A stretch of DNA of 64,000 nt from NCBI GenBank assembly GCA_963709405.1, contig CAVPXM010000030.1, positions 193,785 through 257,784 on the forward strand, written 5' to 3'. This DNA comes from an uncultured Nitrososphaerales archaeon (GTDB lineage Archaea; Thermoproteota; Nitrososphaeria; Nitrososphaerales; Nitrososphaeraceae). Every line of letters starts with the position of its first letter. Position 1 is the stretch's first letter. Positions 4,473 through 60,443 of the stretch are shown here, one piece after another. The notes below the pieces were generated by a model. That model did not search any database and was not told the origin of the DNA. It saw nothing but the letters and a program-made list of their open reading frames with translations. The translations under genes and the position numbers were made by a program.

Positions 4473-6237
4473 CTATTTCACAGTCACGGATTTTGCCAAA
4501 TTGCGAGGGTAATCTGGATCGGCATTGCTCACAAGTGCAAGGTGATAAGCCAGAAGCTGGAAGGGAATTACTTCTATGAGTGGATAGAGAATCTCATCTA
4601 CCTTTGGGATTCTTATGAGGTAATCAAACATACTATTCCTCACATCCGAGATCCCAATTATCGTAGCGCCCCTCGCTTTGATCTCATGTGCATTTGAGAC
4701 AATATCATTATAGGTGGAATCAGACGGATTAATCACGATTACCAATGTATTTTTATCCACCACTGCTAATGGTCCATGTTTTAGTTCACCAGTCTGCTAT
4801 TCCCTCAGCATGAACATATGTTAACTCTTTAATTTTTAACGCTCCTTCAAGCGCTATAGGATAATGCAGTGATCTCCCCATGATGTATATGTCTTTGAAG
4901 TTTTTGATGTTGTTAGATATTTTTTCTATTTCAGATTCTAGCGAAAGAGTTACCTGGGTAGGCTTTGCCAGATCACCTAAACTATTTGAAAGTTGGACGT
5001 CCTTACAGATATTGTTGGTAATTCTATATAACAAGGAGAGCTGCGACGTAAAACTTTTTGTAGCTGCCACACCAATCTCTGGGCCGCAACCAATCTCCAA
5101 GAAAGAATCACTTATTCTAGCTAACGATGAAGTAGTTATATTGACTAGCGAGAGAATCGTCGCGCCTTTTTGTTTAGCCGATTTCACTGCCTGTAGCACA
5201 TCAGCAGTCTCTCCGCTTTGCGAAATTGCGATTACTACAGAGTTGTCATCAATGAGATCCTGCACGTACTGAAATTCGCTTGACATCACACACTCGGCCC
5301 TAATTTTGGGATATTTTGCAAAGAGATATTTTCCAATCAAAGCCGCGTGATAGCTGCTTCCACTTCCGGTAATGTATACACTTTCAGCAGTCGATAAAAA
5401 GTTACAAAATTGGTTCAACTTTTCTTCATCCTTATTGCTGGCCGCAAACATGCTTTTACTTTGCTCATGTATTTCCTTTATAGTATAGTGTGCGTATCTC
5501 CCCTTATCAGCAGCACCCAGCTCCCACGCAACTACAGTGGGGTGACGATTGACAGGATTTCCATCGAAATCAAATAATTGGACACCAGATTTATCTACAA
5601 TTACGATATCTCTGTTATCAAGAAAAATTGCTTTATCTGTGTATTTTAGGAATCCTAAAACATCGCTCGAAATAAAGCAACCGTTTTTGTCAAGCCCTAC
5701 AATTAGAGGTTCGTCGAATCGCGCACCGCCTAAAGTGCCATTTTCATATACTGAAATAAAGGCAAAGGCCCCCTTTAGTCGTTTACAGGTTTTTATCATG
5801 GCGGATTTAATATCTTTATCCGATGAATGATGCTCTTCAAGTAAATGAGCAATGACTTCGCTATCGGTATCACTTTTAAATAAATGTCCTCTGCTCCTCA
5901 ATTCTATCCTCAATTCCTCGTAATTTTCTATGATACCATTATGAACTATTGCTATACTTCCACTACAGTCTGTGTGAGGATGAGCGTTTACATCATTGAC
6001 ACGACCATGCGTGGCCCACCGTGTGTGCCCGATGCCTGTCTTGCCGGGCATTCCATTTAAGTCTAAGTTCTTACTGACTTCAGACACTTTTCCTACGCCC
6101 TTGCGTACAATCATGGTACCATCATCAATAGTACTAATGCCTACGCTATCATAACCTCTATACTCCATTCTCTTGAGACTATCAATTAGAACAGGAGCCG
6201 CATAAAGGTCACCCTTATATCCGATAATCGAACACAT
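4473..6237 (-). CDS. glmS: glutamine-fructose-6-phosphate transaminase, +1 frameshift at about 4793 (probable read error)
   Basis: MCSIIG, EYRGYDS, GHTRWATHG, SQSGET and PRNLAKSVTV motifs; removing one base restores HAEGIAAGELKHGP. Confidence 0.95.
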
Positions 6238-6399
6238 AATAAATAAAGAAATACAAGTCCTTTTAAAAATTATGAAACTATATACGTACCGTTATAATTT
6301 TATTTATCCTGGTTTGCACACCACATTTTGAGAACCAGTTACCTATAATGACTCGACTTTAATTGGATGGTACCACTATATATCATTATATAACACATT

Positions 6400-7371
6400 T
6401 TGAAAAAAATATTGTTGAAGAAAAAAACCCTAGTATACGATATCGAAAAAGGGTTCATGGCAAAAGAAATAATCATTTTTGACAGCGTGGACCAATTGAG
6501 AATCCTCTCTAATCCGACCGCTTGGAAAATAATGCAGCTTTTATCAACTAGACCAATGTACACTGCACAAGTTGCTAAAGAACTAAAAATATACGAACAG
6601 AGTGCATATTATTACACACGCAAGTTGAATTCCATCGGCGCTTTACACGAAGTTGGAACAGTGCTTGTTCGGGGCGGAACTGCCAGGTTATTCCGATCAT
6701 CATGTCCTTCGTTCGGAATAGAAATGGACTGGGGTGAAAAAAAATCAGATATCTCTATTGACCGTGAAAATAAGAGACAATATATCAAGGATTTTTTCAG
6801 CGATTTCATCACGAACGATTCCTTTAATGGTCTTATTGTTGTGGGGGCACCAGACCCTCATGGTCCATACAGATCATCTGCAAGGGATGGTCACTACGCT
6901 GTTCAGTTGGCGTTTTTCTTGGGAACATTTACTAATATTCCATCGGAATTTGTGGTCAAACTTGATGCCGATGCAAAAGCAGAGAAAGTTTTGGACGGTC
7001 GAAACATAATTTCCATAGGCGGGCCTGGAACAAATATCGTTACTGCAGAATTTAACAAATATTTGCCCATAAAATTTAATGAATCAAATTTCTGGGCGGG
7101 TTTGGTAAAAGACTCGCATGAAATATATAACTTGGATAGTCAAGGGCTAATCGCAAAAATAAGAAATCCTTACAGCAACCGCGGCAGCATAATTGTAGTA
7201 GCAGGAGTTAGATCAATTGGTACTAAATCTGCAGTTATAGCACTTACAAACTTTAGTGAGAAAATTCTAAAGAGTTATCAAAATAAGAAGGAATGGGCAA
7301 TTGTTGTTCAAGGATTCGATATGAATTCAGACGGGAAAATAGATCATGTTGATGTGATCTCGGAATATTAA
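6400..7371 (+). CDS. ArsR-like HTH regulator with C-terminal domain of S-layer-like type
   Basis: LSNPTAWKIMQLL...AKELKIYEQSAYYY HTH; C-terminal IISIGGPGTNIVT and VVAG motifs. Confidence 0.7.
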   Translation: MKKILLKKKTLVYDIEKGFMAKEIIIFDSVDQLRILSNPTAWKIMQLLSTRPMYTAQVAKELKIYEQSAYYYTRKLNSIGALHEVGTVLVRGGTARLFRSSCPSFGIEMDWGEKKSDISIDRENKRQYIKDFFSDFITNDSFNGLIVVGAPDPHGPYRSSARDGHYAVQLAFFLGTFTNIPSEFVVKLDADAKAEKVLDGRNIISIGGPGTNIVTAEFNKYLPIKFNESNFWAGLVKDSHEIYNLDSQGLIAKIRNPYSNRGSIIVVAGVRSIGTKSAVIALTNFSEKILKSYQNKKEWAIVVQGFDMNSDGKIDHVDVISEY

Positions 7372-7395
7372 ATAAGCATATGCAGTTAAGGGAAT

Positions 7396-7902
7396 CTATC
7401 CTTGAGGAGTTCCCGAGGAGCTTTTGTGCACATCTAAATGAACCAAAATCTGTTGTTCCTCATGCTTTTTCACCAAATAACCAGGCAGATTGATGAATCG
7501 ATTACCAATCGAAACATGATTATGCACGACCAATTGTCTTGATTGATATGGTGATTTCGTCCCTGTCTTTCTCATTATTATATTCTGCAATCTCCTCTCA
7601 AGCAAATCTTCGATCTTGAGATTTAAGATATCATCGAGAGTTGCGCCTTCCTTCACAAGGCCCAAACGGTTTAAATAGTTTAGTAGTTGAGTCTCTTTTT
7701 CGTGGCGCACTTCAGTCGCAAGAGATAGCAATGCACGAGCTTGGTTTCTAAATCTAGCTACTTCAGTCTGAGCTTTCCATAGTTCTCTCTTGTTTCTGAG
7801 CCCATATGTTCCTACCAGATAAAGTTCAGCACTCAGCTGATCTGTGGTCCACATTCTCCTTGGTCTACTATATGTCTTCTTTGGTTTACGAGGATCACCC
7901 AT
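7396..7902 (-). CDS. rps4: 30S ribosomal protein S4 (uS4)
   Basis: MGDPRKPKK, YGLRNKRELWK and LERRLQ motifs. Confidence 0.97.
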   Translation of the reverse strand: MGDPRKPKKTYSRPRRMWTTDQLSAELYLVGTYGLRNKRELWKAQTEVARFRNQARALLSLATEVRHEKETQLLNYLNRLGLVKEGATLDDILNLKIEDLLERRLQNIIMRKTGTKSPYQSRQLVVHNHVSIGNRFINLPGYLVKKHEEQQILVHLDVHKSSSGTPQG

Positions 7903-7918
7903 AGCTACTCAACATATC

Positions 7919-8485
7919 CTACTTGTTGGCTCCACTCGAGGCCGTTTCGGTTCCTGATTTGACGGGCGTTGAACTAGCTGGCGTGGGTGCTGCAGTGCTC
8001 ACAGGCGCAGCTGGAGCTGCAGCTGCAGCGCCTGGTTTGGATATTTTCTTCACTCCGACCGCGCCGCCTTTTCTTCCTGATGTCCTCGTATGCTGCCCTC
8101 TCACTTTTAATCCGAACATGTGTCGGTAACCACGCCAGCTCATCACTGATTTTTCACGTTCTATGTCATTCGAAATCATGAAATCTAGATCAGAAGTAAT
8201 CAGGTGTTTGTCTGTGCCAGTATCCATATCTTTTCTTCTATTGAAATACCATGAGGGGATTCCTACTCTTGATGGGTCCTTAATCGTTAATTCAATTTCT
8301 TTCAGTTCACTCTCTGTCAAGAATCCTACTCTTATATAGGGATTTATATTAAGAGATTGAAGCAAAACCTGGGCAATATTATAGCCTATACCACGTATCA
8401 AGCTTAATGCAACAATAATTTTCTTACTCCCATCAATATCTTTACCAGATATTCTTAGGATATGACGGTACTCCGAAGCAGACAA
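7919..8485 (-). CDS. rps13: 30S ribosomal protein S13 (uS13) with A/P/S/T-rich tail
   Basis: IRGIG, NRRKD and WRGYRHMFGLKVRGQHTRTSGR motifs. Confidence 0.97.
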   Translation of the reverse strand: MSASEYRHILRISGKDIDGSKKIIVALSLIRGIGYNIAQVLLQSLNINPYIRVGFLTESELKEIELTIKDPSRVGIPSWYFNRRKDMDTGTDKHLITSDLDFMISNDIEREKSVMSWRGYRHMFGLKVRGQHTRTSGRKGGAVGVKKISKPGAAAAAPAAPVSTAAPTPASSTPVKSGTETASSGANK

Positions 8486-8789
8486 ATCAGAATCACGAGG
8501 AAGAATCCGAAATAAAAACCATGCTAACGTAAGAATTTTGCATAGATTGTTGGGTTATTAATTCGTTAACAAGTCAAAGGTATTTTACATATATTGATAG
8601 AAAAAATGAGGCAAAAAAAGTATCACAAACACAATTGGAGATTGGTAAAAGCAAATATTATCCTAGTTTAGTTTTAAGTAAGTACGCACAGAAATCTTAA
8701 CGTTCAAAAAATTTTTAACGAAATTAAATAAGTAAATAAGATATCTGCGTTTGAGAAGTTTAGGCAGAAATTATTAGGGATTTAAATAT

Positions 8790-11898: not shown

Positions 11899-12727
11899 TT
11901 GTCACATAAAAAGAGATTCGATTTGAGTATCGAAGTAAATTACCTTGATTGGAATAACGCTCTTCCGATACTGAATAAGGCTCATGAAGCTGGTTTATTT
12001 TCAATAATCATTGGACCGAAGGGAACTGGCAAGACAACACTTGTGAGGAAATTCGCATCACTAAACAAAAAGGATTTATATTCAGTAAATTTTAGCCTTC
12101 GAACTAGGGAGTCGCATCTTGTTGGTACAAGTACCTATCGATAAAGGTGAAATTAGTTTTGTAGAAGGGATCCTCGTTAAATCTATGCGAAGTGGCGGAC
12201 TGTTATACTTGGACGAGCTAAATGCTGCAGAAGCTGACGTGCTGCTGAGGCTTGATGAAGCGTTGGATGATAGAAGGCAGCTAGTATTAAAAGAAGCTGA
12301 AGGACAGACCATAAATGCCGATCCTAATTGGTCGGTGGTGGCTACAATAAATCCATTATCACATGTAGGAACTAAAGAGCTTCCTCCTCAACTGCTTAGT
12401 AGATTCCCTGTTAGACTCAGGTTAGAATATCCTCCAGAGGATGTTGAGCTAGAAATTGTCAAAAGACATGTTGACTTAGAAAACTCAAAGCTTGATGCAG
12501 TACGCAATGCTATTCGCCTTGCTAAGAATCTCCGCGAAGCGGCTGCAGTAGAGGAACTATATTACAGTCCAAGTTTAAGAGAGACTATCGCTTATTCAAA
12601 GATTCTGAAGAGCGGTCTTTCTGCAAGGGAATCTGCAGAAGTGGTATATGCCAATGCTTATGATCAATGGGGTCAAGTTGAGTATCGCAAAGTGATGGAT
12701 ATGATAACTTCGATATTTGGAACCTGA
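11899..12727 (+). CDS. CbbQ/NirQ/NorQ-type MoxR AAA+ ATPase, +1 frameshift at about 12135
   Basis: GPKGTGKT in the first ORF; LYLDELNAA, ATINP, SRFP and SLRET in the second ORF. Confidence 0.88.
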
Positions 12728-14326: not shown

Positions 14327-14983
14327 TTATGCCAACAAATCTTTATCAATTTTCTTCCAATCAGACAGGAATGAATTAAGACCGATCTCAGTAAGGGGAT
14401 GTTTCATCATCTTCCCTAAGATTTCCGGAGGGAGGGTCACCACATCTGCTCCAATCTTGGCTGCCTCGATGACATGTAGTGGATGTCTAATGCTTGCAAC
14501 TAGTGTCTGAGTGTCATATTGGTAATTTCTAAAGATCTGAACTCACTCTTTAACGAGGAGCATTCCCTCTTGTCCAATGTCATCAAGACGTCCGATGAAT
14601 GGACTCACGTACGAAGCACCTGCCTTTGCCGCCAAAATTGCTTGATTAGCAGAGAATATCAGAGTTACGTTAGTAGGAATTCCTTCCTCTTTCAGTCTTC
14701 TTACAGCTATCAGACCGTCAGGTATCATAGGTATTTTAACAACAACATTTTTACCATATTTCACTAATCTGCGAGCCTCCAAAATCATCTCTTCTGACTT
14801 TGTTCCTATCACCTCTAGGCTGACTGGTCCTTTTATCAGGCCAACAATTTCACGCATAATTGCATCAGGATTTTGCTTTTCTTTATAAAGAAGGCTTGGA
14901 TTTGTCGTGATCCCATCTACAATTCCCATATCGTTAAAGGTCCTTATAGAAACTAAATTGGCTGTATCTAAAAATATCTTCAC
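14327..14983 (-). CDS. tal: transaldolase (TalC/FSA type) with an in-frame TGA at 14543-14545
   Basis: IFLDTA, TTNPSL, VKIP and SPFIGRLDD motifs; the same frame continues past the TGA as VQIFRNY...ASIRHPLHV...HPLTEIGL...DW to a TAA. Confidence 0.92.
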
Positions 14984-15954
14984 TTTCTAACTCCTCTCTT
15001 GGAATGAAGTACAGTCTCAACTATCTTCATTGCGCTTAGACCATACTTTTCAAATAAGCTGTCGATCTCGTCATCTCTTGCCGACTCTCCAAATGTGTCC
15101 AGTACTCCTAATCTCTTTACACTGACTGGATATACTTCGGCAGATACTTCTGTCACCGCTCCACCTAGGCCTCCCAAAATGTTGTGCTCTTCTATAGTAA
15201 CAATTGTACCAGTCTCCCTCCCGCACTTCTCTATTAATTCTCTGTCGATTGGTTTAATAGAAAACATATCTACTACTCTGCAACGCAGACCGTGGGTGTA
15301 TTCCAATACCTCGGCTCCCTCTAATGCCTTTACTACCATTAATCCGCATGCCATAATAGTTGCGTCATTCCCATCTCTTAGGATATTTCCTCTTCCAATC
15401 TCAAATGAAGCCTCTTCTTCTGTATATATTATCTTGCCGGATGGTCTTGCAAGCCGAATATAAAATGGCCCAGAAGTGTCAACTATCCTTCGCACGAGAT
15501 GTCTAACTGCAGTTGCATCCGCTGGTACAAGAACCCTCATATTGGGTATAGCTCTCATTGTTGAGATATCTTCGATCTGTTGGTGCGACGCCCCATCCGG
15601 TCCAACGGAAAGCCCGGCGTGAGAAACTACAAGCTTGACGTTAAGGTTAGGATAACATATAGCATTTCTAATCTGATCAAGGCATCGGCCAGGAAGAAAA
15701 GCTGCATACGTACTAGCAAACGCTATTTTACCTGTCATAGCTAGACCTGCTGCTATAGAGACTAGGTTTGCTTCAGCGATCCCAATGTTAAACATCCTTT
15801 CGGGAAATCTATCGCCAAATTTTTTTGTCTTGAGCGACTCAGTAGTGTCTGCACCCACGCAAACTAAGTTAGCATACTGAGCACCTAATTCGACGAGTGT
15901 TTGACCAAATGCCTCTCTCATGTCGGCTTCCTTTCTTTCGTTACTTAATAGCAT
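14980..15954 (-). CDS. transketolase C-terminal subunit
   Basis: GIAEAN, VGPDGASHQ and EEHNILGGLG motifs. Confidence 0.95.
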   Translation of the reverse strand: MLLSNERKEADMREAFGQTLVELGAQYANLVCVGADTTESLKTKKFGDRFPERMFNIGIAEANLVSIAAGLAMTGKIAFASTYAAFLPGRCLDQIRNAICYPNLNVKLVVSHAGLSVGPDGASHQQIEDISTMRAIPNMRVLVPADATAVRHLVRRIVDTSGPFYIRLARPSGKIIYTEEEASFEIGRGNILRDGNDATIMACGLMVVKALEGAEVLEYTHGLRCRVVDMFSIKPIDRELIEKCGRETGTIVTIEEHNILGGLGGAVTEVSAEVYPVSVKRLGVLDTFGESARDDEIDSLFEKYGLSAMKIVETVLHSKRGVRK

Positions 15955-17623
15955 GGAGCTCCTCCTCTATTCCTAACTCACTTGCAAAAGGAATCAATAT
16001 ATGTTTACGTGCCTTCAACCAATCGGTTCTAGTTCCTATTTGACTTGCATTTTCCAGTAGTGTCTTTTCTAAAACGACATTCGCTGTATGTTTTAACTGA
16101 ATGATCGCACCGTTAATATCTGAGCTACCGTATACTGCGTTACCTGCAACCATTATTCTGGCTCCGGCGGCATAAACTTGTTGAAGCGTTGTGGCGTCGA
16201 TTCCTCCATCCGCTTCTAGATACCCAACAAAATCATGTTCGCGAAGCTTTCGACTTATTGTCATCATCTTGGGTAACACCTCAGGTATGAATTTCTGACC
16301 AGCGGAGCCAGGATTTACCGACATTACGATTATCACATCTATTTCTGAGAGGTGGTGATATAACCAGCCGGGAATATTCTTTGATGGGTTAATTGCAATA
16401 CCTGGACTAATGCCATTCTTGAGTAATTTGGATGTAATCACTGAAAACGAATCTTCGGTGCAAGTTTCAGCGTGAACGGTAACAATGTCGCAACGAGCAT
16501 CTATGTATTCTTGAATATGTTCAAGCGGGTCTTCGATCATGAGATGAACATCAAACGGTAAGGTAGTAAGTGGCCTTAGTTTTCGAATGGTATCTGCAAA
16601 GAATGTGACGTTGGGTACAAAGTTACCATCCATCACATCTAGGTGAATCATGTCTGCGCCGGAACGCTCGGCGATTCTAATTTTTTCTTCATAGTTTTCA
16701 CGCTGACCAGCAATGATGGATGGAGCGATCAGAAATTCACTTTGTAGCTCTTGGAGGAGAATAGGGATGTGCTTCTTCGGAGGCGCCTTCCCATGCCATT
16801 GTGGATTGTTTGTCATATGTTTAATTCCATAGCCCTTAACGGTATTGGCGATAATGATAGTAGGCTTATCTTTAACTTCATAGGCCTTGTTGATAGCTTC
16901 GATCAGTTGTTCAACTTTGTGTCCGTTTATCTCTACAACATTCCAATTGAATGCTAACCATTTGTCACGAACGGGGTCAAGTGGCATTATATCTTCAGTA
17001 AATCCATCTTGTTGTATTCTATTACGATCAAGAATAGCTGTGATGTTGTCTAGCTTGAACTTGGATGCAGCCATAGCTGCTTCCCATACCTGACCCTCGT
17101 TTGATTCTCCATCGCCAATGAGAGTGAATATGTGATTTTCTTTTCCATCAAGTCTTGTGGCTAAGGCGATCCCCAAAGAGACGGACAGGCCAATACCCTC
17201 AGAACCACCAGAGTACTCAGTACCTGGCACACTGTATTTTTCTTGTTCTTTTGAATATCTTACAGGATGACCTTGTAACCTGGCACCAAGCTTACGCAAG
17301 GTATCCATCTCACTAATAGGAAAATATCCCGCTACGGCAAGAGTTGCAAAGAACCCTGGAGCAGAATGAGCTTTAGAATTTACAAAATAGTCTCTTTCAT
17401 GCCAGTGCGGTTTTAATGGATCATGTTTCATTTTTCTAAAATAAAGTCCACCCATGATTTCAGCCGCGGAAAATGACGCGCCAGGATGGCCAGATCCAGC
17501 TTCTGCTATGCCTCGGATAGCCAACATGCGGACACTTCTGATCTGCTGCTTTAGATTAAGATAACGCATTTTTAGACCCATTGCAAAACACAACCGCCTA
17601 GCATTTTCTTGGAAATCATACAT
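15941..17623 (-). CDS. transketolase N-terminal subunit fused to ribulose-phosphate 3-epimerase
   Basis: SGHPG and GDGE..EGQVWEA (ThDP motif), then APSI, HLDVMDGNFVPN, MSVNPG and DGG (Rpe) in one frame. Confidence 0.93.
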   Translation of the reverse strand: MYDFQENARRLCFAMGLKMRYLNLKQQIRSVRMLAIRGIAEAGSGHPGASFSAAEIMGGLYFRKMKHDPLKPHWHERDYFVNSKAHSAPGFFATLAVAGYFPISEMDTLRKLGARLQGHPVRYSKEQEKYSVPGTEYSGGSEGIGLSVSLGIALATRLDGKENHIFTLIGDGESNEGQVWEAAMAASKFKLDNITAILDRNRIQQDGFTEDIMPLDPVRDKWLAFNWNVVEINGHKVEQLIEAINKAYEVKDKPTIIIANTVKGYGIKHMTNNPQWHGKAPPKKHIPILLQELQSEFLIAPSIIAGQRENYEEKIRIAERSGADMIHLDVMDGNFVPNVTFFADTIRKLRPLTTLPFDVHLMIEDPLEHIQEYIDARCDIVTVHAETCTEDSFSVITSKLLKNGISPGIAINPSKNIPGWLYHHLSEIDVIIVMSVNPGSAGQKFIPEVLPKMMTISRKLREHDFVGYLEADGGIDATTLQQVYAAGARIMVAGNAVYGSSDINGAIIQLKHTANVVLEKTLLENASQIGTRTDWLKARKHILIPFASELGIEEELHAIK

Positions 17624-17818
17624 TGAAATGCCGCAATATGAAAGATAAAAAGATATGGCTCAACAGTGCCAGTATCACCTAGATTCATTAGAATCTCAGA
17701 AAGAAGCTTCCATAGAAGCCAGATCCAATACTGTCAATGTATATTTTTCCACAATGGAATTTCGTTAAATGCTATGATGGAATAGTTTAAAATAAAGTAT
17801 ACAAACAAACAAGATCTT

Positions 17819-19316
17819 ATGATCCGAATCAAACTAGAAAAAGTCAAGGCGGGTATAAAACAAACTCAACTTTTGGCTCTAGGCGTTTTTGAAGGAGAAC
17901 CAGACTTCCACTTCAAAGGATTGGAGAATAATTCGTCGTCTGCAATCAAGGAAATAGTCGGAAATGGTGAATTCACCGGTAGCTTCGGGTCTAGCTATTT
18001 GTTACCTACCTTTGGAAAGGTGGCCGCCAAAAGGATTATGCTGATCGGGCTGGGCAAGAAAGAAAAGTATACAAACGAACATGCAAGAATTATTGCGGGA
18101 AAAATATCCCTTAAGGTTCAAGAACTTGGATTGAAAGAGTTTAGTCTCGTCCCTTTCTCCATCTTGGATGACGGCCTCACCGAAGCAATTTTCGAAGGAA
18201 TTTCACTGTCTGTATACAAATTTAATAAATATAAATCAGCCCCAGGTGAGCTGACGTGAACTGAACGAAGTAACAATTTTAGTAGATTCGGATGATTCAG
18301 ACATGCAATCCGTCTTGGATAAATCAAGTCAGATAGTTGAGGCAGTGAACTTTTCACGCGACCTGTGTAACCTTCCCCCCAATGAGTGTCCTCCAGCGGA
18401 ATTGGCAAGGGTAGCTATGGCATTGGCAAATGAATACAACTTAAAAATAAGAGTCATAGAGCGCTATGAAATGGAATCGTTGGGCCTAAATGGTATTGTA
18501 TCTGTTGGGAAGGGAAGTAATAATCAGTCAAAACTTATTATTGTGGAATATCAAGGTGCATCAGACAATCAAAAGCCATATCTTCTCGTAGGCAAAGCAG
18601 TCACTTTCGATACTGGTGGGATATCCTTGAAACCGGGTGACAAGATGGATGAGATGAAATTTGATAAATGTGGGGGCTGCAGCGTATTAGCAGTTATTAA
18701 GGCTGCCGCATCTTTGCGTCTACCTTTAAACGTCGTAGCCTTAATACCGTCAGTTGAAAATATGCCATCTGGTAGTTCGTACAGACCTGGAGACATAATC
18801 AAGATGTATAATGGGAAAACCGTGGAAGTCGCCAATACTGATGCTGAAGGGAGAATTATCTTGGCCGACAGCTTAGCATTTGGAGTAAAAACATACGATC
18901 CTAAGGCCGTTATTGATATGGCGACCTTAACTGGAGCTGCAATAATCGCATTGGGAGCAAACGTTGCAGCAGCAATCGGCAATAATACATCTCTCATGGA
19001 TAAATTGAACAAGGCTTCTGAGAAGACTGGTGAAAAATTATGGGAGCTGCCACTATATGAAGAATTTCATGATCAAATTAAAAGTCACGTAGCCGACATT
19101 AGGAATCTAGGTGGAAGACAAGGAGGGGCAATTACAGCTCCGGCATTTCTTGCTAATTTTGTGGGCGATAGACCCTGGGTTCACTTAGACATAGCAGGAA
19201 CCGCCTGGACACAGGACGGAACCTACGAAAAAAGCTATAATCCTAAAGGTGCTACCGGTTATGGAGTTAGAACTCTGATAAGACTTTTACAAGACAATGG
19301 AAGATCCAAAGAATAA
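17819..19316 (+). CDS. pepA: leucyl aminopeptidase (M17), +1 frameshift at about 18254
   Basis: GKAVTFDTGG, MKFDKCG, NTDAEGR and WVHLDIAG motifs; the N-terminal M17 domain lies in the upstream ORF. Confidence 0.93.
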
Positions 19317-30610: not shown

Positions 30611-31466
30611 TCAGGCTTTAACCGTAAAACTTGCTTTCATGAATGGATGAATAGTACAGAAATAATCATATCCGCTAGGTGCCAGCTTCGAAACGTCCAA
30701 AGTGAACGTTTTCTTTGGCATCATGATGGAAGAGTCAAATGTTTTTCCTTGATCCTTAAAGCTCGTGACCGTGTGAGGAACATTGTCATTGTTCGTCCAA
30801 ATTATGCCGGCGTTTTTGGTTACAAGAATGGCCTTGGGATCAAAATTTGGATTTCCCTTTGCCGATGCTCCAGGCAATATCGAAATCTTTGATATCAAAG
30901 TACCTTTCTTTAAGACCACAGCCTCGGGTGCACCTGAACCAGCTTGCGCACTATTTGTAGCATTCTGACTCTGAGCCGAAGGAGGTTTCGGGGTTACTAG
31001 CCCAAAGGCATAAAAGGTTATACCTCCGACTAATGAGGCTGAAATGAACATCACGGTCAAAGCTTTTATGTATGGTGTTCTCTTGGCCGACGCCACTGCT
31101 ATTACTGCAGCCGGAATTCCTATTATCATCATTAATCCAATATAGGCAAATATACTTGGAACTTGTGCACTGACGGTTACTGCGGTCTGCCACACCAAAC
31201 GTAACCAAAAATCCCAATGTAATTAGAGTAGCAGATTTAGCTTTGCCTGAAGACGGAAATCCATCCTTGAAAAGACCGGACGCAAGAAAGATCATTCCAA
31301 TTAGCATTGTCAAGAGGGAAACGGCGTGCATTCCTTCCACGAATGTCTTCGCTATCCCAGCGAGCGAAATTCCTACCCCCACTATCCCAATTGATGTCAA
31401 ACCGATACCGGGAGTAAGAAGATCCCAATCAGTCATACTACTATACTCAGGTGGGAGAGGCTTCAC
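30611..31466 (-). CDS. multi-TM membrane protein with C-terminal cupredoxin (type 1 Cu) domain, +1 frameshift at about 31186
   Basis: TM helices in both ORFs; WTNND..PHTVT and YFCTIHPFM copper ligands; repair gives FGVAAAVTVSAQ. Confidence 0.87.
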
Positions 31467-31516: not shown

Positions 31517-32192
31517 GGCTGTGTGAACTTAAAGAAAATCCTATAGCTGAAGATGAGGTCCTATCTCTTTAATATGGTTGCTAAAAGAAATAGGACACCT
31601 TCAAAGCCTGTTGGCTATGGATTGTACTTGTACTTTCTAGGTTTATCATATAGGAATACTTCAAAGGCATTTATCCGGATTCATCAAAGGAAGTAATGTA
31701 TCCATCTGGAAATGGATTCAAAAGTACAGACCTAAAAGAATCAAGCGAAATAGAAAAGGACAACGGAATTTATCATTCATGAAACTATGATAAAAAAGAT
31801 TCGTTCTAATTACATGTGGATTTGGGTTGCAATAGAGTCTGAATCCAAGGAAATTCTTGGAATTAGTGTATCAAAAGAACGAAATATGTTCATTGCAGAG
31901 CGTTTTATTTCATCATCGATAAAAGAATATGGTAAGCATTCAATATCTACAGATGGTGGTACGTGGTATCCACAAGCTTGCAGATTCTTGAGACTAAAGC
32001 ATCACACGCATTCCACATTTGAGAAAAGTCTTGTTGAAAGAACAATGCAGTATATCAAGGATAGAACCAAGAGTTTTGACGACTATTTCCATTGTAGAAA
32101 AGAGAATTGTAGACTAAACATGTACAATATGGTTGACCCTTTTCGTAAACGTGCATAACAAGGGGGAAATAAACGCTTAAGGTAACAGAGCT
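31517..32192 (+). mobile_element. degenerate IS6-family element
   Basis: DDE fragments WIWVAIE, STDGGTWYPQAC and ERTMQYIKDR; imperfect IRs GGCTGTGTGAACTTAA / TTAAGGTAACAGAGCT; 8-bp direct repeat GGGTTCTA at 31509-31516 and 32193-32200. Confidence 0.9.
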
Positions 32193-33587: not shown

Positions 33588-35036
33588 TCATTGCAGCAGG
33601 CTACCACATAATGCATTCGGAGAGACACTCTGTACTCTTACTTGCAATTCTGCGCCAAGAATGTTATCGGCAGACTCCTTTGACAATCCGCACTGCGTGA
33701 ATGGTATAAATATTGGCTTATACGCATAATTCCTTCCCACCAGTGCATCTTTTGTTACTTCATCGACCAAAATTTTGCCTACCCAATTTTTCCAAAATTG
33801 ATTTTGCTCATAACATATTTTTTTTACTAATAGATGAAGTCTCTCTGTTCTCCTCTTTACTACTTGTGAATCTATCTTGTTCCTTTCAGAAGCTCGTGTT
33901 CCTGGCCTAGAACTATATTTAGAAATATTCACAACATCAGGCCGAACCTCTGAAATTAAAGAAAGCGTATCTTGAAAGTCTGCCTCTGTTTCGGACGGAA
34001 ATCCAACAATTATATCCGTTGCGATAGTGATCTCGGGTATCTCGTTTCTAAGCATCTTGACGATTTTTCTAAATATGTCAACTGTGTGACCACGCTTCAT
34101 CATTTTTAGTATTCTGTCACTTCCGCTTTGAACAGGGATGTGAATAAACTTGAAAATCTTTTTATTTTGTTCAAAAACCTTCACTAACTCTTCTTCCATG
34201 CTTGGGATATACATAGGATTCATCATTCCTATTCTTATCATAAAATTAGCATCAATTTCTACACATGAATTCAACAGATGAACCAAGTCTACTCCAATGT
34301 CTCTGCCATAGCAGCCATTGTCAGTGGAGGACAGCCAAATTTCCTTGCACCCTTCAGATATATCTCCACTTATTTGTCTAGTTATCTCACCGACGCGATA
34401 ACTCTTTAACCATCCTCTGGCTAGCTTCGTCTGGCAAAAAGTACATTCACTAAGACATCCTGTTGATATTTCTACTATTGATATAATGCGATTAAGTCGA
34501 ATTCTGGGTATATTCAGTTTAGATAATACCGAGTCCTCAAGCGCTACCATTTTTTCACTATTAAGAGCAGATCTTACAACTTGGACTGTCTGATCGATAG
34601 AATTAGGACCAATCAAAGATGCACTCAGATTCGCTGATTCAACTTTACTTCTGTCTGCCTTTGCAAGGGAGCCTGCAACAACAATTGGTCTCCTCGACTT
34701 TGTAATTTCATTAATCCGATGAATCATTCTATGTTCAGTTGAATCCTTAACTGAGCACGTAACTATGATACTGGCATCTGCTTCCTTTTGATCTACTGCC
34801 ATATCAAACCCATCAGCTGTGAGTAATCCTTTAATTATTTCAGAATCCGCAATATTTGAAGGACAACCATAAGCTTCGATCCATATCTTTCGTTTTGAAG
34901 TGGACTCGCTCAGAACTCTGCTATTTACAGGGCTTGGATTGGCTAGACTATTCGAGATAGCTGGATATCCATAATTTTGGTCGTTTTTTTCTGTAAATGC
35001 TCTCTCATCTATTATTTTTTTTTCAGACCGCAACAA
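33588..35036 (-). CDS. mtaB: archaeal tRNA t6A methylthiotransferase (MtaB/MiaB-like radical SAM)
   Basis: YGCPSN, TCSV, GCLSECTFC, HIPVQSGSD and DIIVGFPSET motifs; TRAM-like C-terminus. Confidence 0.9.
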   Translation of the reverse strand: MLRSEKKIIDERAFTEKNDQNYGYPAISNSLANPSPVNSRVLSESTSKRKIWIEAYGCPSNIADSEIIKGLLTADGFDMAVDQKEADASIIVTCSVKDSTEHRMIHRINEITKSRRPIVVAGSLAKADRSKVESANLSASLIGPNSIDQTVQVVRSALNSEKMVALEDSVLSKLNIPRIRLNRIISIVEISTGCLSECTFCQTKLARGWLKSYRVGEITRQISGDISEGCKEIWLSSTDNGCYGRDIGVDLVHLLNSCVEIDANFMIRIGMMNPMYIPSMEEELVKVFEQNKKIFKFIHIPVQSGSDRILKMMKRGHTVDIFRKIVKMLRNEIPEITIATDIIVGFPSETEADFQDTLSLISEVRPDVVNISKYSSRPGTRASERNKIDSQVVKRRTERLHLLVKKICYEQNQFWKNWVGKILVDEVTKDALVGRNYAYKPIFIPFTQCGLSKESADNILGAELQVRVQSVSPNALCGSLLQ

Positions 35037-35517: not shown

Positions 35518-36886
35518 TTACTTGTTAGCCAAGGAATTTTTGGACAGAAGACGGCGAGTAGAATCTAGTAATATCTCAACATCACGCTCAGTATGAGCCT
35601 CTGAAAATGCGCCCATCTTTAGAGGAAGGAAAAATATTCCATGGTTTGACATCAAAGCAAAATGATATCGTCTTAACATATTTCTATCAGACAGGCCCAC
35701 GTCAGTGGCATTATGAATCTGGTTCACTTTATCATTCAGAAAATGGGTACAGAAAATAGAACCAACCCCAGTAATATCTACTGGAACTCCTGCCTCGGAA
35801 AAAATTTTGCTCAAGCCTCTCCTTGTTTGATTGCCAAGTTTATCTATTTTTGAATATAAAGAATTTTTATTTTTGATAAGGTAAGTGAGATTAGCAATGC
35901 CTGCTGTCATTGTCATTGGATTTGCAGAAAAAGTCCCACCGCCGATAGCACAGCATGACTCTTTGGAGTCTCTTTTCACAGGATCCGCAAGGGACATCAC
36001 TTCTCTTTTGCCACAAAGCACTCCTATCGGCATTCCTCCGCCGACTATTTTACCTAAAGTGAATATATCTGGATCCAATTTATAATAATCAATGGCGCCT
36101 TTTAGAGATAACCTGAAGCCCGTTACGATTTCATCAACTATGAACATGCTGTCGTTTCTCCTTGCAAACTCTTGAAGACCTTTTAAGTAACCTTCCACTG
36201 GTGGGATGCAACCTGCCCCCCCTAGAACGGGCTCAACAATTATGCCAGCTCAGATCATCTTTGATAGCTTCAAGAATCATTAGAGAGCGGTTCAGATCGT
36301 TAAATGGAATAGACTCAATGAACTGCTCCTCGTCCTGGATTAAGCCGGGGCCTTCATCAAATTCGAACGGGTAATTTACTGATTGCAGCAATGGAGTATT
36401 AAACCCATGCCAACCTCCGATTATTTTAGCAATCACTCTTCTGCCTGTTCTGGCACGTGCCAGGCGGACAGCATACATTGTTGCCTCCGATCCAGTACTA
36501 CTAAAACGCAGAAGTTCTGCATGAGGCATGATCTTTTGAATCAAACCGCCAAGTTCTACACTAGCATCGTTTACTGTTCCGTACAGCGTACCTTTTCTTA
36601 CCTGCTTTGACAATGCATCAGTGATGGGCTTCGACGAATGTCCAAGTATGAGAGCCCAATGACCCATCCAGTAGTCAGTATATCTATTGCCATCAATATC
36701 GTACAAAGATTTCCCTTTAGATTTATTAACAAAGAAAGGATATGGTTGGAAGTACCGAATATTGTGACTTATGCCACCTGGAAAGATATTTGCAGATTTA
36801 TGATAGAGATGCCATGACTTTAATGTATTACGTTTATACGCGCCTTCAAAGTTAGAATAGCTCATTTGTAACAGGCAAGATATCAT
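35518..36886 (-). CDS. hemL: glutamate-1-semialdehyde aminotransferase, +1 frameshift at about 36245
   Basis: PGGISH, SSTGSEA, DEIVTGFR, LGKIVGGGMP and GGTFSANP motifs; repair gives DDLSCIIVEPV. Confidence 0.92.
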
Positions 36887-42382: not shown

Positions 42383-43478
42383 ATGGCATCTTTGTCTTTA
42401 TCCAGTACAATAGAGAATGAGCATCCTAGATCGGTCTCTGCAGCAATCTCTGACAGATCTCCCCATATTAAAAAACCAAGGGTGATTTGTCTTTCCCATA
42501 AGGAGGACGTGGATGGTTTAGCTTCCTCTGTATTGATTACAGCAGCATACAAGTCAGCAATCTCAGTTATGCTTGTAGATTACGCGAATATTATCTCAAG
42601 GCTGAATCAAATTGTTAGTATCACTTCAACACCGGATGGAAATGGAAGATCTGGAATGCTGTTTATTTGCGATCTTGGATTGAATAAAAAAGTTGAAAAG
42701 AAGTTCATCGAAAATATCGAAAGAATTATTGCAAATGGTTACAGGGTAACATATATAGATCATCATGATTTGAGTCAAGATACTCGTAATGCACTAAAAA
42801 AAATTGGTGTGAAGCTAATTCATTCGCTTCAAGAATGTACAAGTGTTCAAATTTATAAGATATTCAAAAAGAGGCTCGACCCGCGTGCGTCGTTCTATGC
42901 TGCTGCCTGGTGCTCTAACTGACTACATGGAGGATAGACCGATCGCCTCCTCTATTTCGTCTAGATTTGACAGACAGTTTCTGATGCTGGAATCGACAGT
43001 ATTATCTTATATCATCTCGGCAAATCAACATGATGATGAATACTTGTACAATTTAGTAAATGATTTGTCTCAGATGAAATTTCCACATGAGATTGAAGGA
43101 GGTTTTTCGATTGCCCAGAGGTATGCAAAGAAAATTTCTGAAGGTGCGAAGTTACTTTATGACTCAATTGTTAAGCGCAAAAATATCGCATATGCTCATA
43201 GCAACTTGGATCTATCTTCTAGTATGGTGGTCAACTTTGTGTTAGGTGCGTCTGAAAAACCTGCAGCAATGGTCTATAAATTCAGAGATGAAATCAAGTC
43301 ATATGTTATTTCAATCCGCGGTTCAAAGGATTGTAAAACTCATCTAGGTAGATTAGTCAATGATGTTGCGTTAGAGATTGGGGGAAGTGGGGGAGGTCAT
43401 GATAAAGCATGTGGAGCGGTTGTCCCCAGGGATAAATTAGAATTGTTTATTGAACGCCTGGATAGTGGTATAAGATAG
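42383..43478 (+). CDS. DHH/DHHA1 family phosphoesterase, +1 frameshift at about 42906
   Basis: DVDG, ICDLG, IDHH and GGSGGGHDKACG motifs; repair gives FYAAAGALTDYME. Confidence 0.9.
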
Positions 43479-45221: not shown

Positions 45222-47049
45222 TTGCTTAGTCGTTCGAATAGCTATATATCAATTTTTACAGCCTTATTCTTTGTAGCGCTTTTAGTTTCGACCTCTTTAT
45301 TTATATCTGAATATTTTAATCAAAAAGCTTTTGGAGACGGGCTTACTCAAGAAAATCTTCCCCCTGCTACGGTTGGAAATAGAAAGGCGAGTCTCTTTGT
45401 TAAAGTAAGCCCGCCAATTCTAACTACTGATACTCGAGGTAATACCTATCTGCAACTTCGCTTATTTGACGCTAATACCAACGAAACTATCCAGCATGTT
45501 ACTTACGATATTTCAGTTACTAAAGGCACCACCCAAGCAGGACCGGGAACAAAGCCAATTTTGAGGGACTTCTTCCATGCTCACAACGGTTTATTGACTT
45601 TAAAAATACAACCAGTCAATAGCAGTGGTGGACAAGTTACAATTTATGGTGAAAGAGATCCATTTCAAAATGCATGGGTAGCCGATCCAGGCGGTTCAAT
45701 TAATATAAGAGGCCCAGTCTTGCTTGGCGGAGGACTGTATCATATTCATATAGAAATCTTTGGAATTGATAACGATAGAAACCTTTTCATACCTGATCAA
45801 GCACCAAAATATGATTCTTATCTTAGTGTAGGTGATGTTTATCGTAACAACATAGCAGATCCTAGCAGTGGTCAAAAATTTAATACGACGCTTATCTCAT
45901 ACTACGACAAAATTAACGATTTCAAATTTGATCCAAATACAAAGAATATAACCTGGCAGATGCCCTTTGATTGGAACTTGTCACGAATCAAGAAGCAGAA
46001 CATATTTGTACACGAAGAGCTTAGGTTGCCAAAATCCTGGAAGGGCTTTGTGGGCAGTGGATTTGCTGGTTCGTTCAATGCTACAGTCAATGGTATTCCC
46101 ATAACAGGACGATCATTGGCCATAGATCCATTCTCTTATCCAAATGCTCTGGTTCTACATTATCTAATTAACAAAGATGAACTCATAAAGATAGCAGAGG
46201 CAAGACAACAACAACAACAAGGACAGCAAGGACAAGGAGGGCTAACCGCAAATAGCTCTTCTCTCAATGCTGCTAATATTAATAATAAAACATCAACAAC
46301 GGTATCGAATTCAACTAAAGTAGGATCTTCATCTGCGACTGTTAATAAGACGGCCTACCACAATGGAGGTATCTTAATGAATAAGGGTAATATTTACAAT
46401 CAGAATATAGCTAGACCAAAACTTATTTTGGTGGCAGACCAACAGTAACAATACCATTAATAATAACAGTAGTTCGATTAGTTCTCTCAATAGACAAAAA
46501 GTATCAAGCGAAGGTGTAATGTCATTTACATTAATGAGCAACACTGAATCTAATAAGACAGCTTCTTCTGCTTCTGCTTCTGCTTCTGCGCAAACCTCTT
46601 CAGATTTAGTTACTGATACGGGGGCAATTCATGTAATTGTTACTTGGTCACCTAATCCACTGGCACCCTCTAAGGAATCAACTGTAAAAATTCAATTCTC
46701 TGATGCTCTGACCTCAGGACCATTGAATGCAGATGTAAAGTACGATCTAATGATACTTAATAAAAATGGTACAACGGCGATAAAAAAAGATAATCTTGTA
46801 GCCAAAAATGGAACAGGGACACAGACAGTTACATTTCCAGCAAAGGATGTATATCAATTAGAGATACGTATAAAGGCCTTACAAAGAACAGGACAATCTG
46901 TACCGGATTTAACTAGAAGTGGAATTGCAAGAGGATATGTGGTAGTTCCAGAATTTCCATCAGCTACCGGGGCAGCACTCTTGATAGGGGGCTTATTCGT
47001 AGTTGCAATTTTCTTTACCCGTAGATTCAAAACCTCTTATAAAATCTAG
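45222..47049 (+). CDS. secreted surface protein with PEFG-CTERM-like anchor, +1 frameshift at about 46438
   Basis: signal peptide, Q/N/S-rich linker, and C-terminal VVPEFP plus TM helix plus RRFK; the frame is open from 46411 into ORF 46519. Confidence 0.8.
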
Positions 47050-54479: not shown

Positions 54480-54716
54480 GAGCGCAATTACATAGCCCAA
54501 ACCAAAGAGATATCATAGTATCCCAATGAAAAACATGTCACATAGCATCAATAAAAAACGTTTGAGTCTGGAAAGCCTGTATATCCTTTGCACTATTGTT
54601 TTTGTGGGTTTTTAATTTTAGACTCTACATAATTTCTAATTAGACTATTCATTGAATTATGCGCATACTGCCTCCAGTCATAAAGTATAATAGAGATTGC
54701 CCTTTACAAGGGGATA

Positions 54717-56687: not shown

Positions 56688-57314
56688 GATAGGAGAAATT
56701 CTAAACCGGTCTTATACACCGGTCCAGAAAAGGTACAACCACAATATTGAGCGATAATGCTCTTATTGACCTTGGTAAGCATGGGAAACGTACTGATCTG
56801 AATACTCTTCTGATTTCTTATCACAACTTATGAGCAATTTTCTGAATCTGCTATGTCGTGTGTATAAAACCCATCTTTAAGTACGATGATGACGATGATG
56901 ATAAATGACAATATCTTTACTAATTATTGTTAATTGTCGTACTCAACGAGCTGGGTTACAATAAAGCGAACTAGCAGTAAGTGAACAAACCTTGTAAGTG
57001 TGGTGAACAGACGATAGTGTACGTAAGAAGAATATGTTTGTGCGAACGGAAATACGGGAGTACTGCCTGCAGGTGTGTGTAGGACAGACGAACACATATC
57101 CAGAGCTAACGAATTCTTTGATAGCCTTAATCGAAGTAAAAATACTATGACAGTGATGGAATGATCTGATAGGTAGTAACATATAACTAAAATTAGACAA
57201 AACCTTCAATTGAGCCAACGATTATTGCGAAGAATTGTCGAATACTGTCAAATACTATCCAATCCCTTTCATAATGTTTATAGTTCTGCGAGAGCGGCTA
57301 GATGACAATATGAG

Positions 57315-58263
57315 ATGACGGAAAACAACAAATCACAGTCGAAAAATTTTGACACAGGAGTGATTATAGATAAAATTTCTAAAGCGGCTGCGGAGCTAAG
57401 CAATACTACCAATCCCTTGAATTTCATTGAACAGATGATCTCCATCAGTGTGCTATTAATCGAATATGACCCACCTTTGTCAGACATAATCCGAACTATA
57501 GATGAAAAAGCGCAGGATCCTAGTTACTTTATCGCTGCCTACTTTGATACAAAAGATGTAACCAAAGCATTGTGGATCTATAGAATAGTTCGGTTGTTAG
57601 CTAAATATATTCTTCTTTCCGATAGATTTTATGAGATAGGGAATGATAAATATGCTTTGCTCGCAGAACGAGTGCGTCAATCAGTAAATGAATATCTCAG
57701 ATCCGAAAGTGATACACAACATCTTAGTTATTCTATACCTTATTCCTTAGAGCAGTTTTCGACATTTTGGAAATTTGAGCAGATCGTAAAATCTCGTATA
57801 CTTGGAAATTATGCTTTCTCGTACACTGAAATAAGACATTTTAATCTATCAAAGTCATCAGATGCATCGATAGTCTATGCAAAAGTTTTAGATGCCAAGC
57901 TCCCCAGCTTTAATGAAAATGTCTGCTTTAGTTCTTCATTACAATCAGGCGTTGCTTGATATACACGATGACTGGGAGGATATAGCGGATGACGTTCAGG
58001 AAGATATGCCCAATATCTTCGTTATGGCTGCACTTGAGAATATTCCTTACAACATCATAAAAAATTCCAGCCATGAAATGATTAGAGATGTTGTATTGAA
58101 TGGAGCAGATATATCAAGTGCACAGATTATTAGGTTAGTAAACGATATCCAGGCATCAGTCAGGAACGTTTCTATTCCTGACAACTTTAGCTTCTTAAAA
58201 TCCCTATCTGATCGTTACGCTGATAATTTGAGAAAGACCATATCTGTAGCATATTCTCAATAA
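57315..58263 (+). CDS. class I isoprenoid-synthase-fold protein, +1 frameshift at about 57922
   Basis: predicted helical; DIHDDWEDI (DDxxD); repair gives NENxALVLHYNQALLD. Confidence 0.6.
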
Positions 58264-58492
58264 ATGTATTGCTATTCAGTATGACGTTAGGTTGCATTTA
58301 ACGCCCTTAATCTAAGCTAACTTCACGGGGTCTCACAATATTAGGTATAGAACGGTAATATCTGTACTAGGAGAGACAATACTTGATCCAAGATTAAACA
58401 ATAGATTTAATAAAAATCTCGTATCTGATCGATTAAGCAAGTAATGCCCCCAAATTTTTATCTCAAAAAAAGGTGACCTTTTAAGGCACCAA

Positions 58493-59359
58493 TTACTTCA
58501 AGGCAGGTATAGGTCCAGGCGCTGTTGCATTTTGGGGTTGAGCCCCGGTTGCATTTTTGATTGGTATAGGTCCAGGCGCTGTTGCATTTTGAGGTTGAGC
58601 CCCGGTTGCATTTTTGATTGGTATAGGTCCAGGCGCTGTTGCATTTTGGGGTTGAGCCCCGGTTGCATTTTTGATTGGTATAGGTCCAGGCGCTGTTGCA
58701 TTTTGGGGTTGAGCCCCGGTTGCATTTTTGATTGGTATAGGTCCAGGCGCTGTTGCATTTTGGGGTTGAGCCCCGGTTGCATTTTCAGGCAAATTCGGTG
58801 ATAGCTTTCCTGCCACTATGCCAAGTGGAAATTTAATAGTGTCAATTCTTACAATCACATTTCCAGCAAGGATATCTCTTACAAGAGATGGCATGTCCTC
58901 CCCACGTCCACGAAGGAAATCAGCAGAGGTGAAATTTCCTGCCAAAGACGCTGATTTCGCCTGGCCACTCAATCCTTGCTGAGTACCACTCCTCAAGACG
59001 ACTATATCAGTACATCTTCCTCCCGTCGAATGACACAGCGTCGCTCCTCTGACATTATCCACAGGGCCCCCTGTAATATTATAGGACATAGTTTTTCCGT
59101 CACCTAATAAAGCAAGTTCTGCTCTTCCTGTAGCATTAGTCTTTACTGGAGGAAAAACATTATCGCCAGTCAGTTTTGCAAAGAAATGTGGCCTACTCGT
59201 GTTAGATACGTCGCTCGATTGGGCGTATAATGCTGGAGACATATTAGTAACCGCAGTTGCACTAATCATTGTCAGAGACATTAGGCTAGCCAACACTAGC
59301 AGCTTAGGAACATTCATAGTCGAGTATATGGTTAGGTTACTATATATGCATATTGTCAA
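58493..59359 (-). CDS. secreted CHRD-domain protein with 19-aa repeat tail
   Basis: signal peptide and FAKLTGDNVFPPVKTNATGRA; likely start MNVPK. Confidence 0.8.
   Translation of the reverse strand: MTICIYSNLTIYSTMNVPKLLVLASLMSLTMISATAVTNMSPALYAQSSDVSNTSRPHFFAKLTGDNVFPPVKTNATGRAELALLGDGKTMSYNITGGPVDNVRGATLCHSTGGRCTDIVVLRSGTQQGLSGQAKSASLAGNFTSADFLRGRGEDMPSLVRDILAGNVIVRIDTIKFPLGIVAGKLSPNLPENATGAQPQNATAPGPIPIKNATGAQPQNATAPGPIPIKNATGAQPQNATAPGPIPIKNATGAQPQNATAPGPIPIKNATGAQPQNATAPGPIPALK
58506..58785. repeat. 57-bp tandem repeat, about 4.9 copies
   Basis: near-identical units start at 58506, 58563, 58620, 58677 and 58734; they encode NATGAQPQNATAPGPIPIK. Confidence 0.97.
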
Positions 59360-59523
59360 TGTTCTGTGATATTAGTCACAGGTTTTGTCGTATTAGTTCT
59401 AAGTAGCGATAAATTTCAATTCAAGAAATATCACCTCCTGTAATGTTTTCATTGCTTATCATATAATTTATTAATATGGTTAATCCTAAGAGTCTTAGAA
59501 AAAATGTCCAGGAGCGATTTTGA

Positions 59524-59862
59524 ATTAAGCGCGGTATAGCAGTTTTAATAGCTGGTGGAGTTCTTCTACTGATTGGTTTAGCGGTGGTAATCCCTTCCCT
59601 CTCTTCCCTTGTCTCAGTAGCCGATTCACTACCCCCAATCTCAGCAAAAGATTTGATAAGATCAAGTGTCGGAAACTTTGTTAAAGGCAACCAGACGGCT
59701 ATCAAAGATACTCTGAAGAGTATAGGTTATGACATAGCACTTAGTTCCTTCGGGATTCTGGTAAGTATAATACTTGTAATTAATAGCATAATCGCCTTTG
59801 TGGGAGGGATTATCATAGTTATATATGACAGAAGATCTAAGAGCAAGCCTCTTACAAAATGA
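59524..59862 (+). CDS. small membrane protein (start uncertain)
   Basis: the frame is open from ATT 59524 (IKRGIAVLIAGGVLLLIGLAVV); second TM segment near the C-terminus. Confidence 0.6.
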   Translation: MKRGIAVLIAGGVLLLIGLAVVIPSLSSLVSVADSLPPISAKDLIRSSVGNFVKGNQTAIKDTLKSIGYDIALSSFGILVSIILVINSIIAFVGGIIIVIYDRRSKSKPLTK

Positions 59863-60136
59863 TAAGACAACATTGGTAACATTGATTCGGGTAATCTAGG
59901 CAAACCTCGAGCCAAATAATTGTCTGGCTGCCTGATACAATGCTGGTAAGTGCAGTCTTGGACACATATAAAAAAACATTTGCCCTGAAAAATACACAAT
60001 CACCAGACACACATTGCTATGGCCCACCTGTTCATACAGTATGAAGGAATGTTTGCAAGTTAGATCAATTGTTCAGTTAACAGGGCCGAATTCCCTTTCC
60101 GAAAGTATATTAACTACGTATACTTTCTTATAAATT

Positions 60137-60443
60137 ATGAGAGGGAGATGGGCTTCAGCGAGCTATAGGAGCAAGCGTAGCAAGAAGTCGCGCCGGCGCT
60201 CAGGCGAATCAACAATCACAAGCAGCACAAGCTCAACAACAAGCAGCACAACAACAGATAGAAGCACAGCAAAGGCAAATAGAAGCACTACAACAACAAA
60301 AACAACAACCCCAAACCCAAACCCAACCACAGCAGGAAGATATCACTCAGAAGTTGCAAAAATATGCTGATCTCCACCAGAAAGGAATATTATCTGACGA
60401 GGAATTCCAGAAACTCAAGGCGGAATTGTTATCTAAGATTTAA
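60137..60443 (+). CDS. Gln-rich SHOCT-domain protein, +1 frameshift at about 60160
   Basis: after removing one base: MRGRWASAAIGASVARSRA..QQQ..LQKYADLHQKGILSDEEFQKLKAELL. Confidence 0.85.

Follow-up and report, generated by a model that had tools for sequence, protein, structure and literature searches.

The window analysed here is a 64-kb stretch of archaeal DNA (G000:C30:193785-257784) in which several protein-coding genes, including glmS and pepA, are broken by single-base frameshifts, most of them at or beside the short palindrome GCWGC (GCAGC or GCTGC). The window belongs to a metagenome bin of 4.83 Mb in 100 contigs with a G+C content of 37%, a completeness of 91% and a contamination of 3.67%. 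The source names of some close protein and contig matches assign it to an uncultured member of the Nitrososphaeraceae. Sequencing runs from eight studies (21 entries) contain part of the stretch, which by itself says nothing about the lesions. The longest contigs of this genome reach 456 kb, which suggests a long-read origin of the assembly. Six GTDB species share the genus of the organism. The genes of the window include those for the ribosomal proteins L31e and S4/S13, a cupredoxin, a split transketolase and mtaB. An initial reading of the nucleotide sequence alone (hereafter the sequence-only reading) had listed eight frameshifts that are each repaired to GCWGC by removal of one base and two odd substitutions that also revert to this word, and had proposed that the organism modifies GCWGC genome-wide while the genes are intact in vivo. 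All ten motifs, for the eight frameshifts and the two substitutions, are present where that reading had placed them.

Pfam assigned consecutive parts of one family to two open reading frames (ORFs) for glmS (SIS domain), pepA, hemL, the DHH gene and the cbbQ-like AAA_5 gene. The cupredoxin gave a Pfam match in the downstream ORF only, and its split was seen from full-length homologues. To place each lesion, every base of the ambiguity window was deleted in turn, and the translated product was scored against full-length, near-identical proteins from other assemblies (90–100% identical to the window fragments). The repair to GCWGC held for six of the eight frameshifts. In glmS, the lesion GTCTGC (4792..4797) carries an extra T at 4793, whose removal gives GCTGC and is the unique best deletion with 4/4 references; the repaired protein is identical to P0123 at 586 of 587 residues and fully identical to P0130. 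The cupredoxin lesion has the same form (GTCTGC, 31185..31190), with an extra T at 31186 that is the unique best deletion in a 275-nucleotide ambiguity window for all six references. The PEFG-protein lesion GCAGAC (46434..46439) contains an extra A at 46438, which is the unique best choice with 2/2 references and restores GCAGC; at the same site, P0152 from another assembly reads VGAN, corresponding to a substitution of the GGAGC type. In the DHH/RecJ-like gene (GCTGCCT, 42902..42908), 5/5 references place an extra C (42906/42907) or T (42908) directly 3′ of GCTGC, and the repaired protein matches P0146 at 364/364 residues. The extra base of pepA (GCTGAC, 18250..18255) lies at 18253 or 18254 according to tblastn and the deletion scan, and removal of the A gives GCTGC. 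Specifically, tblastn with P0001 leaves 18254 as a single unaligned base and P0163/P0169 read GELREL, while with P0164 a deletion at 18252 scores one unit better. The SHOCT lesion GCGAGC (60158..60163) was placed with the help of a paralogue on contig C91 (97% identical protein) and of a same-genus relative (L194). Both have TCAGCAGCTATAGGA where the window has TCAGCGAGCTATAGGA (GCAGCT vs GC[G]AGCT, with the extra base in brackets), and thus deletion of the G at 60160 restores GCAGC.

The remaining two assignments, hemL and the isoprenoid-synthase-like gene, did not withstand the homologue-guided deletion scans and the comparison with same-genus DNA. In hemL (36244..36252), the extra base is at 36250/36251, beside AGCT and outside the G[C]CAGC that had been claimed, and is not at GCWGC. 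This placement follows from five same-genus DNAs, and all six close homologues (77–96% identical) read DDLAGIIVEPV at this position. On the minus strand, the extra base can be written as CTG[A]GCTGG or CT[G]AGCTGG. In the isoprenoid-synthase-like gene (57921..57926), the surplus base falls at either 57923 or 57924, i.e. GTC[T]GCT or GT[C]TGCT, and the true sequence is GTYGCT (Val-Ala), which is not GCWGC. P0157, P0156 and P0159 have NENVALVLHY here, and the five same-genus DNAs read GTC-GG, GTT-GG or GTT-TG. The 6-mers of the kind on which the sequence-only reading relied occur 14,099 times in the genome, and approximately 1.8 chance matches are expected in eight ambiguity windows; hence, two misassigned sites are as expected.

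Both of the odd substitutions were borne out by the residues of relatives. In pepA, GCTCC stands for GCTGC at 19137..19141 (C19140) and places Pro for Ala: the window reads ITAPAFL and P0001, 96% identical over the fragment, reads ITAAAFL, with Ala also in P0164. In mtaB, GGAGC stands for GCAGC at 34668..34672 (G34669) and places Ser for a conserved Cys, which is present in 160/160 aligned relatives. These mtaB relatives, at most 58% identical and taken from metagenome and genome contigs, were used for the Cys column and as context for hemL only. Both substitutions thus amount to a single kind of error, in which GCTCC is written for GCTGC.

Several further lesions had been set aside by the sequence-only reading as not fitting. 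This is correct for tal and for the C2H2 zinc-finger gene, neither of which is at GCWGC. The two TAL_FSA halves of tal are in one frame on the minus strand, separated by an in-frame TGA at 14543..14545 (LLVKE*VQIFRNY), and this codon is probably a candidate substitution error. The C2H2 gene (~62800-62830, minus strand) has a frame change in the missing-base direction near AGGAGTGAGTGTGC. The cbbQ-like (AAA_5) lesion is also away from GCWGC, but it fits a second motif. At AGTACCT (12130..12136), 5/5 same-genus DNAs are one base shorter, so that there is one extra C (12134/12135) and the true AGTACT holds GTAC. Genome-wide, AGGTACT/AGTACCT had 20 of its 596 occurrences in extra-base windows (described below), 5.3 times the expectation; in the same windows, AGTACC was counted 32 times (11.8 expected) and AGGTAC 27 times (10.4 expected). 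The second error motif, which breaks the cbbQ-like gene, is GTAC with an additional G:C pair next to it (A[G]GTACT / AGTAC[C]T).

The enrichment of GCWGC at frameshifts is genome-wide and far above chance. Junction candidates were defined as same-strand open frames of at least 60 amino acids that can be joined by a single-base deletion or insertion. There were 952 extra-base and 759 missing-base candidates, many of which are ordinary neighbouring genes that only dilute the signal. All 6-mers were ranked by their occurrence inside extra-base windows of up to 100 nucleotides. GCTGCC/GGCAGC (72 of 1430 occurrences, 9.3 expected) and GCGAGC/GCTCGC (38 of 819, 5.3 expected) were at the top, with GCAGAC/GTCTGC lower (30 of 1431, 9.3 expected), and GCAGC was first among the 5-mers (120/6918 vs 46 expected). 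After removal of repeats, which reduced the 1,711 junctions to 1,502 clusters, GGCAGC, GCGAGC or GTCTGC was found in 124/736 extra-base and 23/583 missing-base windows (odds ratio 4.9, Fisher p 1.3e-14). The same 6-mers also led a second unbiased ranking, made against interior control windows from the same genes (GGCAGC 63 vs 10.9, GCGAGC 38 vs 7.3, GTCTGC 27 vs 11.8), and junctions with this signature were present on 21 of the 24 contigs of at least 50 kb. Approximately 1–2% of about 7,000 GCWGC sites are affected.

The error takes mostly the form of one extra base ([G]GCAGC, GC[G]AGC, or GCAG[A]C, which equals G[T]CTGC) and sometimes that of a change from GCAGC to GGAGC. GCAGC and GCTGC are the two strands of a single site, so that the unequal counts of the derived 6-mers tell only where the extra base falls. 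Only the G[T]CTGC class agrees with the proposal that the lesions lie at the inner C of the palindrome, often as an extra T. Genome-wide, [G]GCAGC and GC[G]AGC form the strongest classes. The flanks had a moderate effect, with AGGCAGCA having 23 of its 209 occurrences in junction windows, and no motif longer than GCWGC emerged from the flank analysis. Two other signals were discarded. A ranking of 5-mers created by the repair was distorted where narrow windows contained stop-codon words and where GC-rich windows were open in two frames. A homopolymer and ATCGCC signal at missing-base junctions came mostly from one repeated element, and on de-duplication a mild enrichment of homopolymers was left. 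This element, which contains CATCGCCCCCCTAAAGG and was counted 11–17 times within junctions of the missing-base class, may represent an insertion sequence whose run of six C is the site of a programmed or miscalled frameshift.

Twenty junctions with the signature were drawn at random outside the window. The upstream fragment was found in the database for 15 of them, and 10 had near-identical longer relatives, all of which align across the junction. For seven of these ten, the best-scoring deletion gives back GCWGC or lies directly next to it (L173, L174, L175, L179, L183, L185, and L190). As for the others, the sole reference for L172 differs by a Pro/Ala change of the GCTCC type and leaves the site ambiguous, L177 is ambiguous with a margin of 1, and the lesion of L187, an IS5 transposase, is at GTAC.

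The claim that the genes are intact in vivo agrees with the content of other assemblies, which derive from this organism or one very close to it. The repaired proteins of glmS (P0130), DHH (P0146), L174 (P0186), L185 (P0258) and L190, which is ribosomal protein L4e (P0281), are identical to database proteins. Full-length proteins from other sources are on record for glmS (587 amino acids), DHH (364), pepA (498), cupredoxin (284) and L4e (271). Other assemblies also carry errors of their own at these sites. Five N-terminal pepA fragments in one 90% cluster (that of the window, P0162, P0165, P0166, and P0168) all break off at one GCTGC site, where they show four distinct ends (GELT*, GE*, GEST*, and GEAT*). 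Mismatches on GCWGC were likewise found in P0152, P0252 and P0195, and those of P0152 and P0252 are of the GGAGC type. The presence of different wrong sequences at one site across assemblies indicates a systematic miscall rather than a mutation.

We consider it likely that the lesions are consensus errors at GCWGC caused by a base modification that alters the nanopore signal, and that the genes are intact. The two parts of this explanation differ in strength: the artefact and the intactness of the genes are well supported, and the modification of GCWGC is plausible. In this mechanism, a base modification at GCWGC would shift the nanopore signal, and the basecaller and polisher would then miscall the modified sites. 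We infer the nanopore platform as well as the modification of GCWGC and its chemistry. Motif-specific errors of long-read consensus sequences at modified bases, which the sequence-only reading had taken as established, are indeed documented at methylated GCWGC in the results that we could consult from a study of Listeria (10.1101/2024.07.12.603236).

Several observations weigh against this explanation. Two of the eight window frameshifts and three of the ten informative sampled junctions are away from GCWGC. Homopolymers are only mildly enriched after de-duplication (7.4% vs 4.0% in controls for runs of at least 6), and the genome shows no avoidance of GCWGC (observed/expected ratio of 1.15). 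No methylase is assignable to GCWGC. In particular, the suggested C5 methyltransferase of the M.ApeKI type was not found: the search of the organism's own 4.83-Mb genome, which is 91% complete, gave 0 matches to PF00145. Furthermore, the motifs reported to be methylated across Nitrososphaerales showed little or no enrichment at indels (1.0-fold for GATC, 1.1-fold for CGCG, 1.4-fold for AGCT and 1.1-fold for GTAC, with 1.6-fold for GGTAC), so that methylation alone does not predict errors.

Other methylase genes are present in the genome. The N4/N6-type methylase family PF01555 has seven loci (C61:83684-84583; C21:264208-264930, C21:107765-108494 and C21:164190-165096; C55:172233-172937 and C55:375939-376187; C29:30274-30762), among them one fragment and two split or interrupted genes. 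A full copy of an IS240-type transposase adjoins an interrupted PF01555 methylase on C21 (L003, G000:C21:106265-109894), and a fragment of an IS240-type DDE transposase is present in the window (31754-32155, plus strand). There is one D12 methylase gene, which encodes a Dam-like adenine methylase of 300 amino acids, lies ~132 kb upstream of the window on the same contig (G000:C30:61548-62312, minus strand) and is probably the conserved GATC N6-methyladenine (m6A) enzyme of the phylum. PF00145 is present in 5/31 related genomes, and within the genus in one of six as a partial match. The genome contains no type I methylase, and no endonuclease recognizable by Pfam lies beside the methylase loci, where several neighbouring ORFs have no family. 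DndB and DndE of the phosphorothioation system gave no match; the DndE search matched no control genome either and is uninformative.

The most serious alternative is a generic bias of the basecaller or polisher in the GCAGC context that requires no DNA modification and would be expected in any genome sequenced alike. It would account for an error rate that depends on the flanks, as with AGGCAGCA, for the lack of an assigned methylase and of a C5 methylase, and for the little error at motifs expected to be methylated in the order. The signature also occurs in a second species of the genus, G004 (576-kb contig; C84 and C38, L221-L236), in 7/38 extra-base and 0/30 missing-base windows, and this could mean either that the two species share a methylase or that they were sequenced on one platform. 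On the other hand, the GCWGC errors of Listeria arose in isolates with a GCWGC restriction-modification system, as far as the accessible part of that report goes (10.1101/2024.07.12.603236). At best a weak argument in the same direction is provided by the outgroup G017, a 240-kb sample of a long-contig genome from another genus with too few junctions (10 and 9), in which the signature was found in 0/10 extra-base windows; a further outgroup, G020, contributed only 47 kb. G001, an 80-kb sample from the same genus as the window and too small to be informative, had the signature in 0/9 extra-base windows. On balance, a context bias of this kind is unlikely.

A consensus of a mixed population, in which strains with real indels or variants were co-assembled into a chimeric sequence, is a far weaker candidate. 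In its favour, the genome was binned from a metagenome, its contamination is 3.67%, and close relatives with 96–99% protein identity co-occur in public data. However, strain variation would not focus on one 5-mer or frameshift glmS, pepA and ribosomal protein L4e, and the independent assemblies differ in the wrong sequence at the same site; we regard this origin as highly improbable. True pseudogenes, or hypermutability of GCWGC in vivo, can practically be dismissed, since nothing beyond the assembly itself speaks for them, the affected genes include essential single-copy ones (glmS, hemL, and L4e), single-base repair yields proteins identical to those of other assemblies, and the lesion sequence at one site varies between assemblies.

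Under the explanation by base modification, the enzyme would most likely be encoded by one of the seven PF01555 loci, and the mark would then be N4-methylcytosine (m4C). Since no C5 methyltransferase gene was found in the 91%-complete genome, an N4/N6-type PF01555 enzyme is the likeliest; given also that an m4C GCWGC enzyme exists in Chloroflexi, m4C is the better guess. We therefore propose, tentatively and as a conjecture that may well prove wrong, that the genus marks GCWGC with a modification other than 5-methylcytosine (m5C), likeliest m4C made by a PF01555 orphan methylase, as an archaeal m4C-GCWGC system beyond the conserved Nitrososphaerales set. If true, this would explain why basecalling fails at GCWGC much more often than at GATC, AGCT or CGCG. 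The mark may instead be a bulkier or another modification.

In this public genome, roughly a hundred genes or more appear disrupted although they are intact, and at least one sister species shows the signature as well. For such bins, the numbers of pseudogenes, the assignment of pathways and the estimates of completeness are biased; most of the errors could be removed by polishing that takes the motif into account. The error pattern also offers an inexpensive way to detect a likely epigenetic motif in a soil archaeon that has not been cultured, and it points to a modification of GCWGC without a C5 methylase. Nanopore consensus errors at modified motifs have already been described; for specialists, the result is useful rather than surprising, and its biological yield is modest.

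Two features of the window are recorded here in addition. In a single frame of 572 amino acids at 15944-17659 (minus strand), residues 38-298 correspond to a transketolase N-terminal domain and residues 311-510 to a ribulose-phosphate 3-epimerase; the transketolase C-terminal gene comes next. This frame is either a true fusion or two genes merged by an assembly error. The SHOCT protein (60141-60440) has its 97%-identical paralogue at G000:C91:1991-2275; the family has eight matches in the same genome. Of the six further genomes of the genus that were searched, five have 2–7 matches each and one, which is 75% complete, has none.

With regard to known systems, the recognition word is that of the M.ApeKI (Aeropyrum pernix)/TseI type, for which archaeal examples are described in the sources consulted; the defining C5 domain PF00145 of that type was not found in this genome. 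Among thaumarchaea, a GCWGC m5C system is predicted for Nitrosoarchaeum limnia BG20, according to the REBASE predictions cited in the available part of one report (PMC11033074). The M.AbaBS3I enzyme of freshwater Chloroflexi, described as an m4C GCWGC methylase in the portion of the literature at hand (PMC6329791), indicates that this word can carry m4C. The seven PF01555 loci of the present genome may offer a counterpart. The conserved orphan methylases across Nitrososphaerales, as listed in the accessible text of their description (PMC10609329), act on GATC (m6A) and on GTAC, AGCT and CGCG (m4C). The D12 and PF01555 genes found here fit this set, and its GTAC matches the second error motif, [G]GTAC. 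Unlike the motifs of this set, GCWGC lies outside it as described there, and GATC, AGCT and CGCG show little or no indel enrichment in our data. The closest parallel to the error pattern itself is that of Listeria monocytogenes assemblies from Oxford Nanopore Technologies R10.4.1 data, in which, in the results available to us, residual errors were located at GAAGAC and G5mCWGC in isolates with matching restriction-modification systems and approximately 2% of the methylated GAAGAC sites were miscalled (10.1101/2024.07.12.603236). In both cases, the errors fall on a short motif, including GCWGC (methylated in Listeria), affect a small share of the sites (~2% vs ~1–2% here) and involve homopolymers to a minor extent. 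The scale is different: the Listeria genomes are described with 2–4 errors each, while hundreds, mostly gene-breaking single-base insertions, are present in this metagenome bin.

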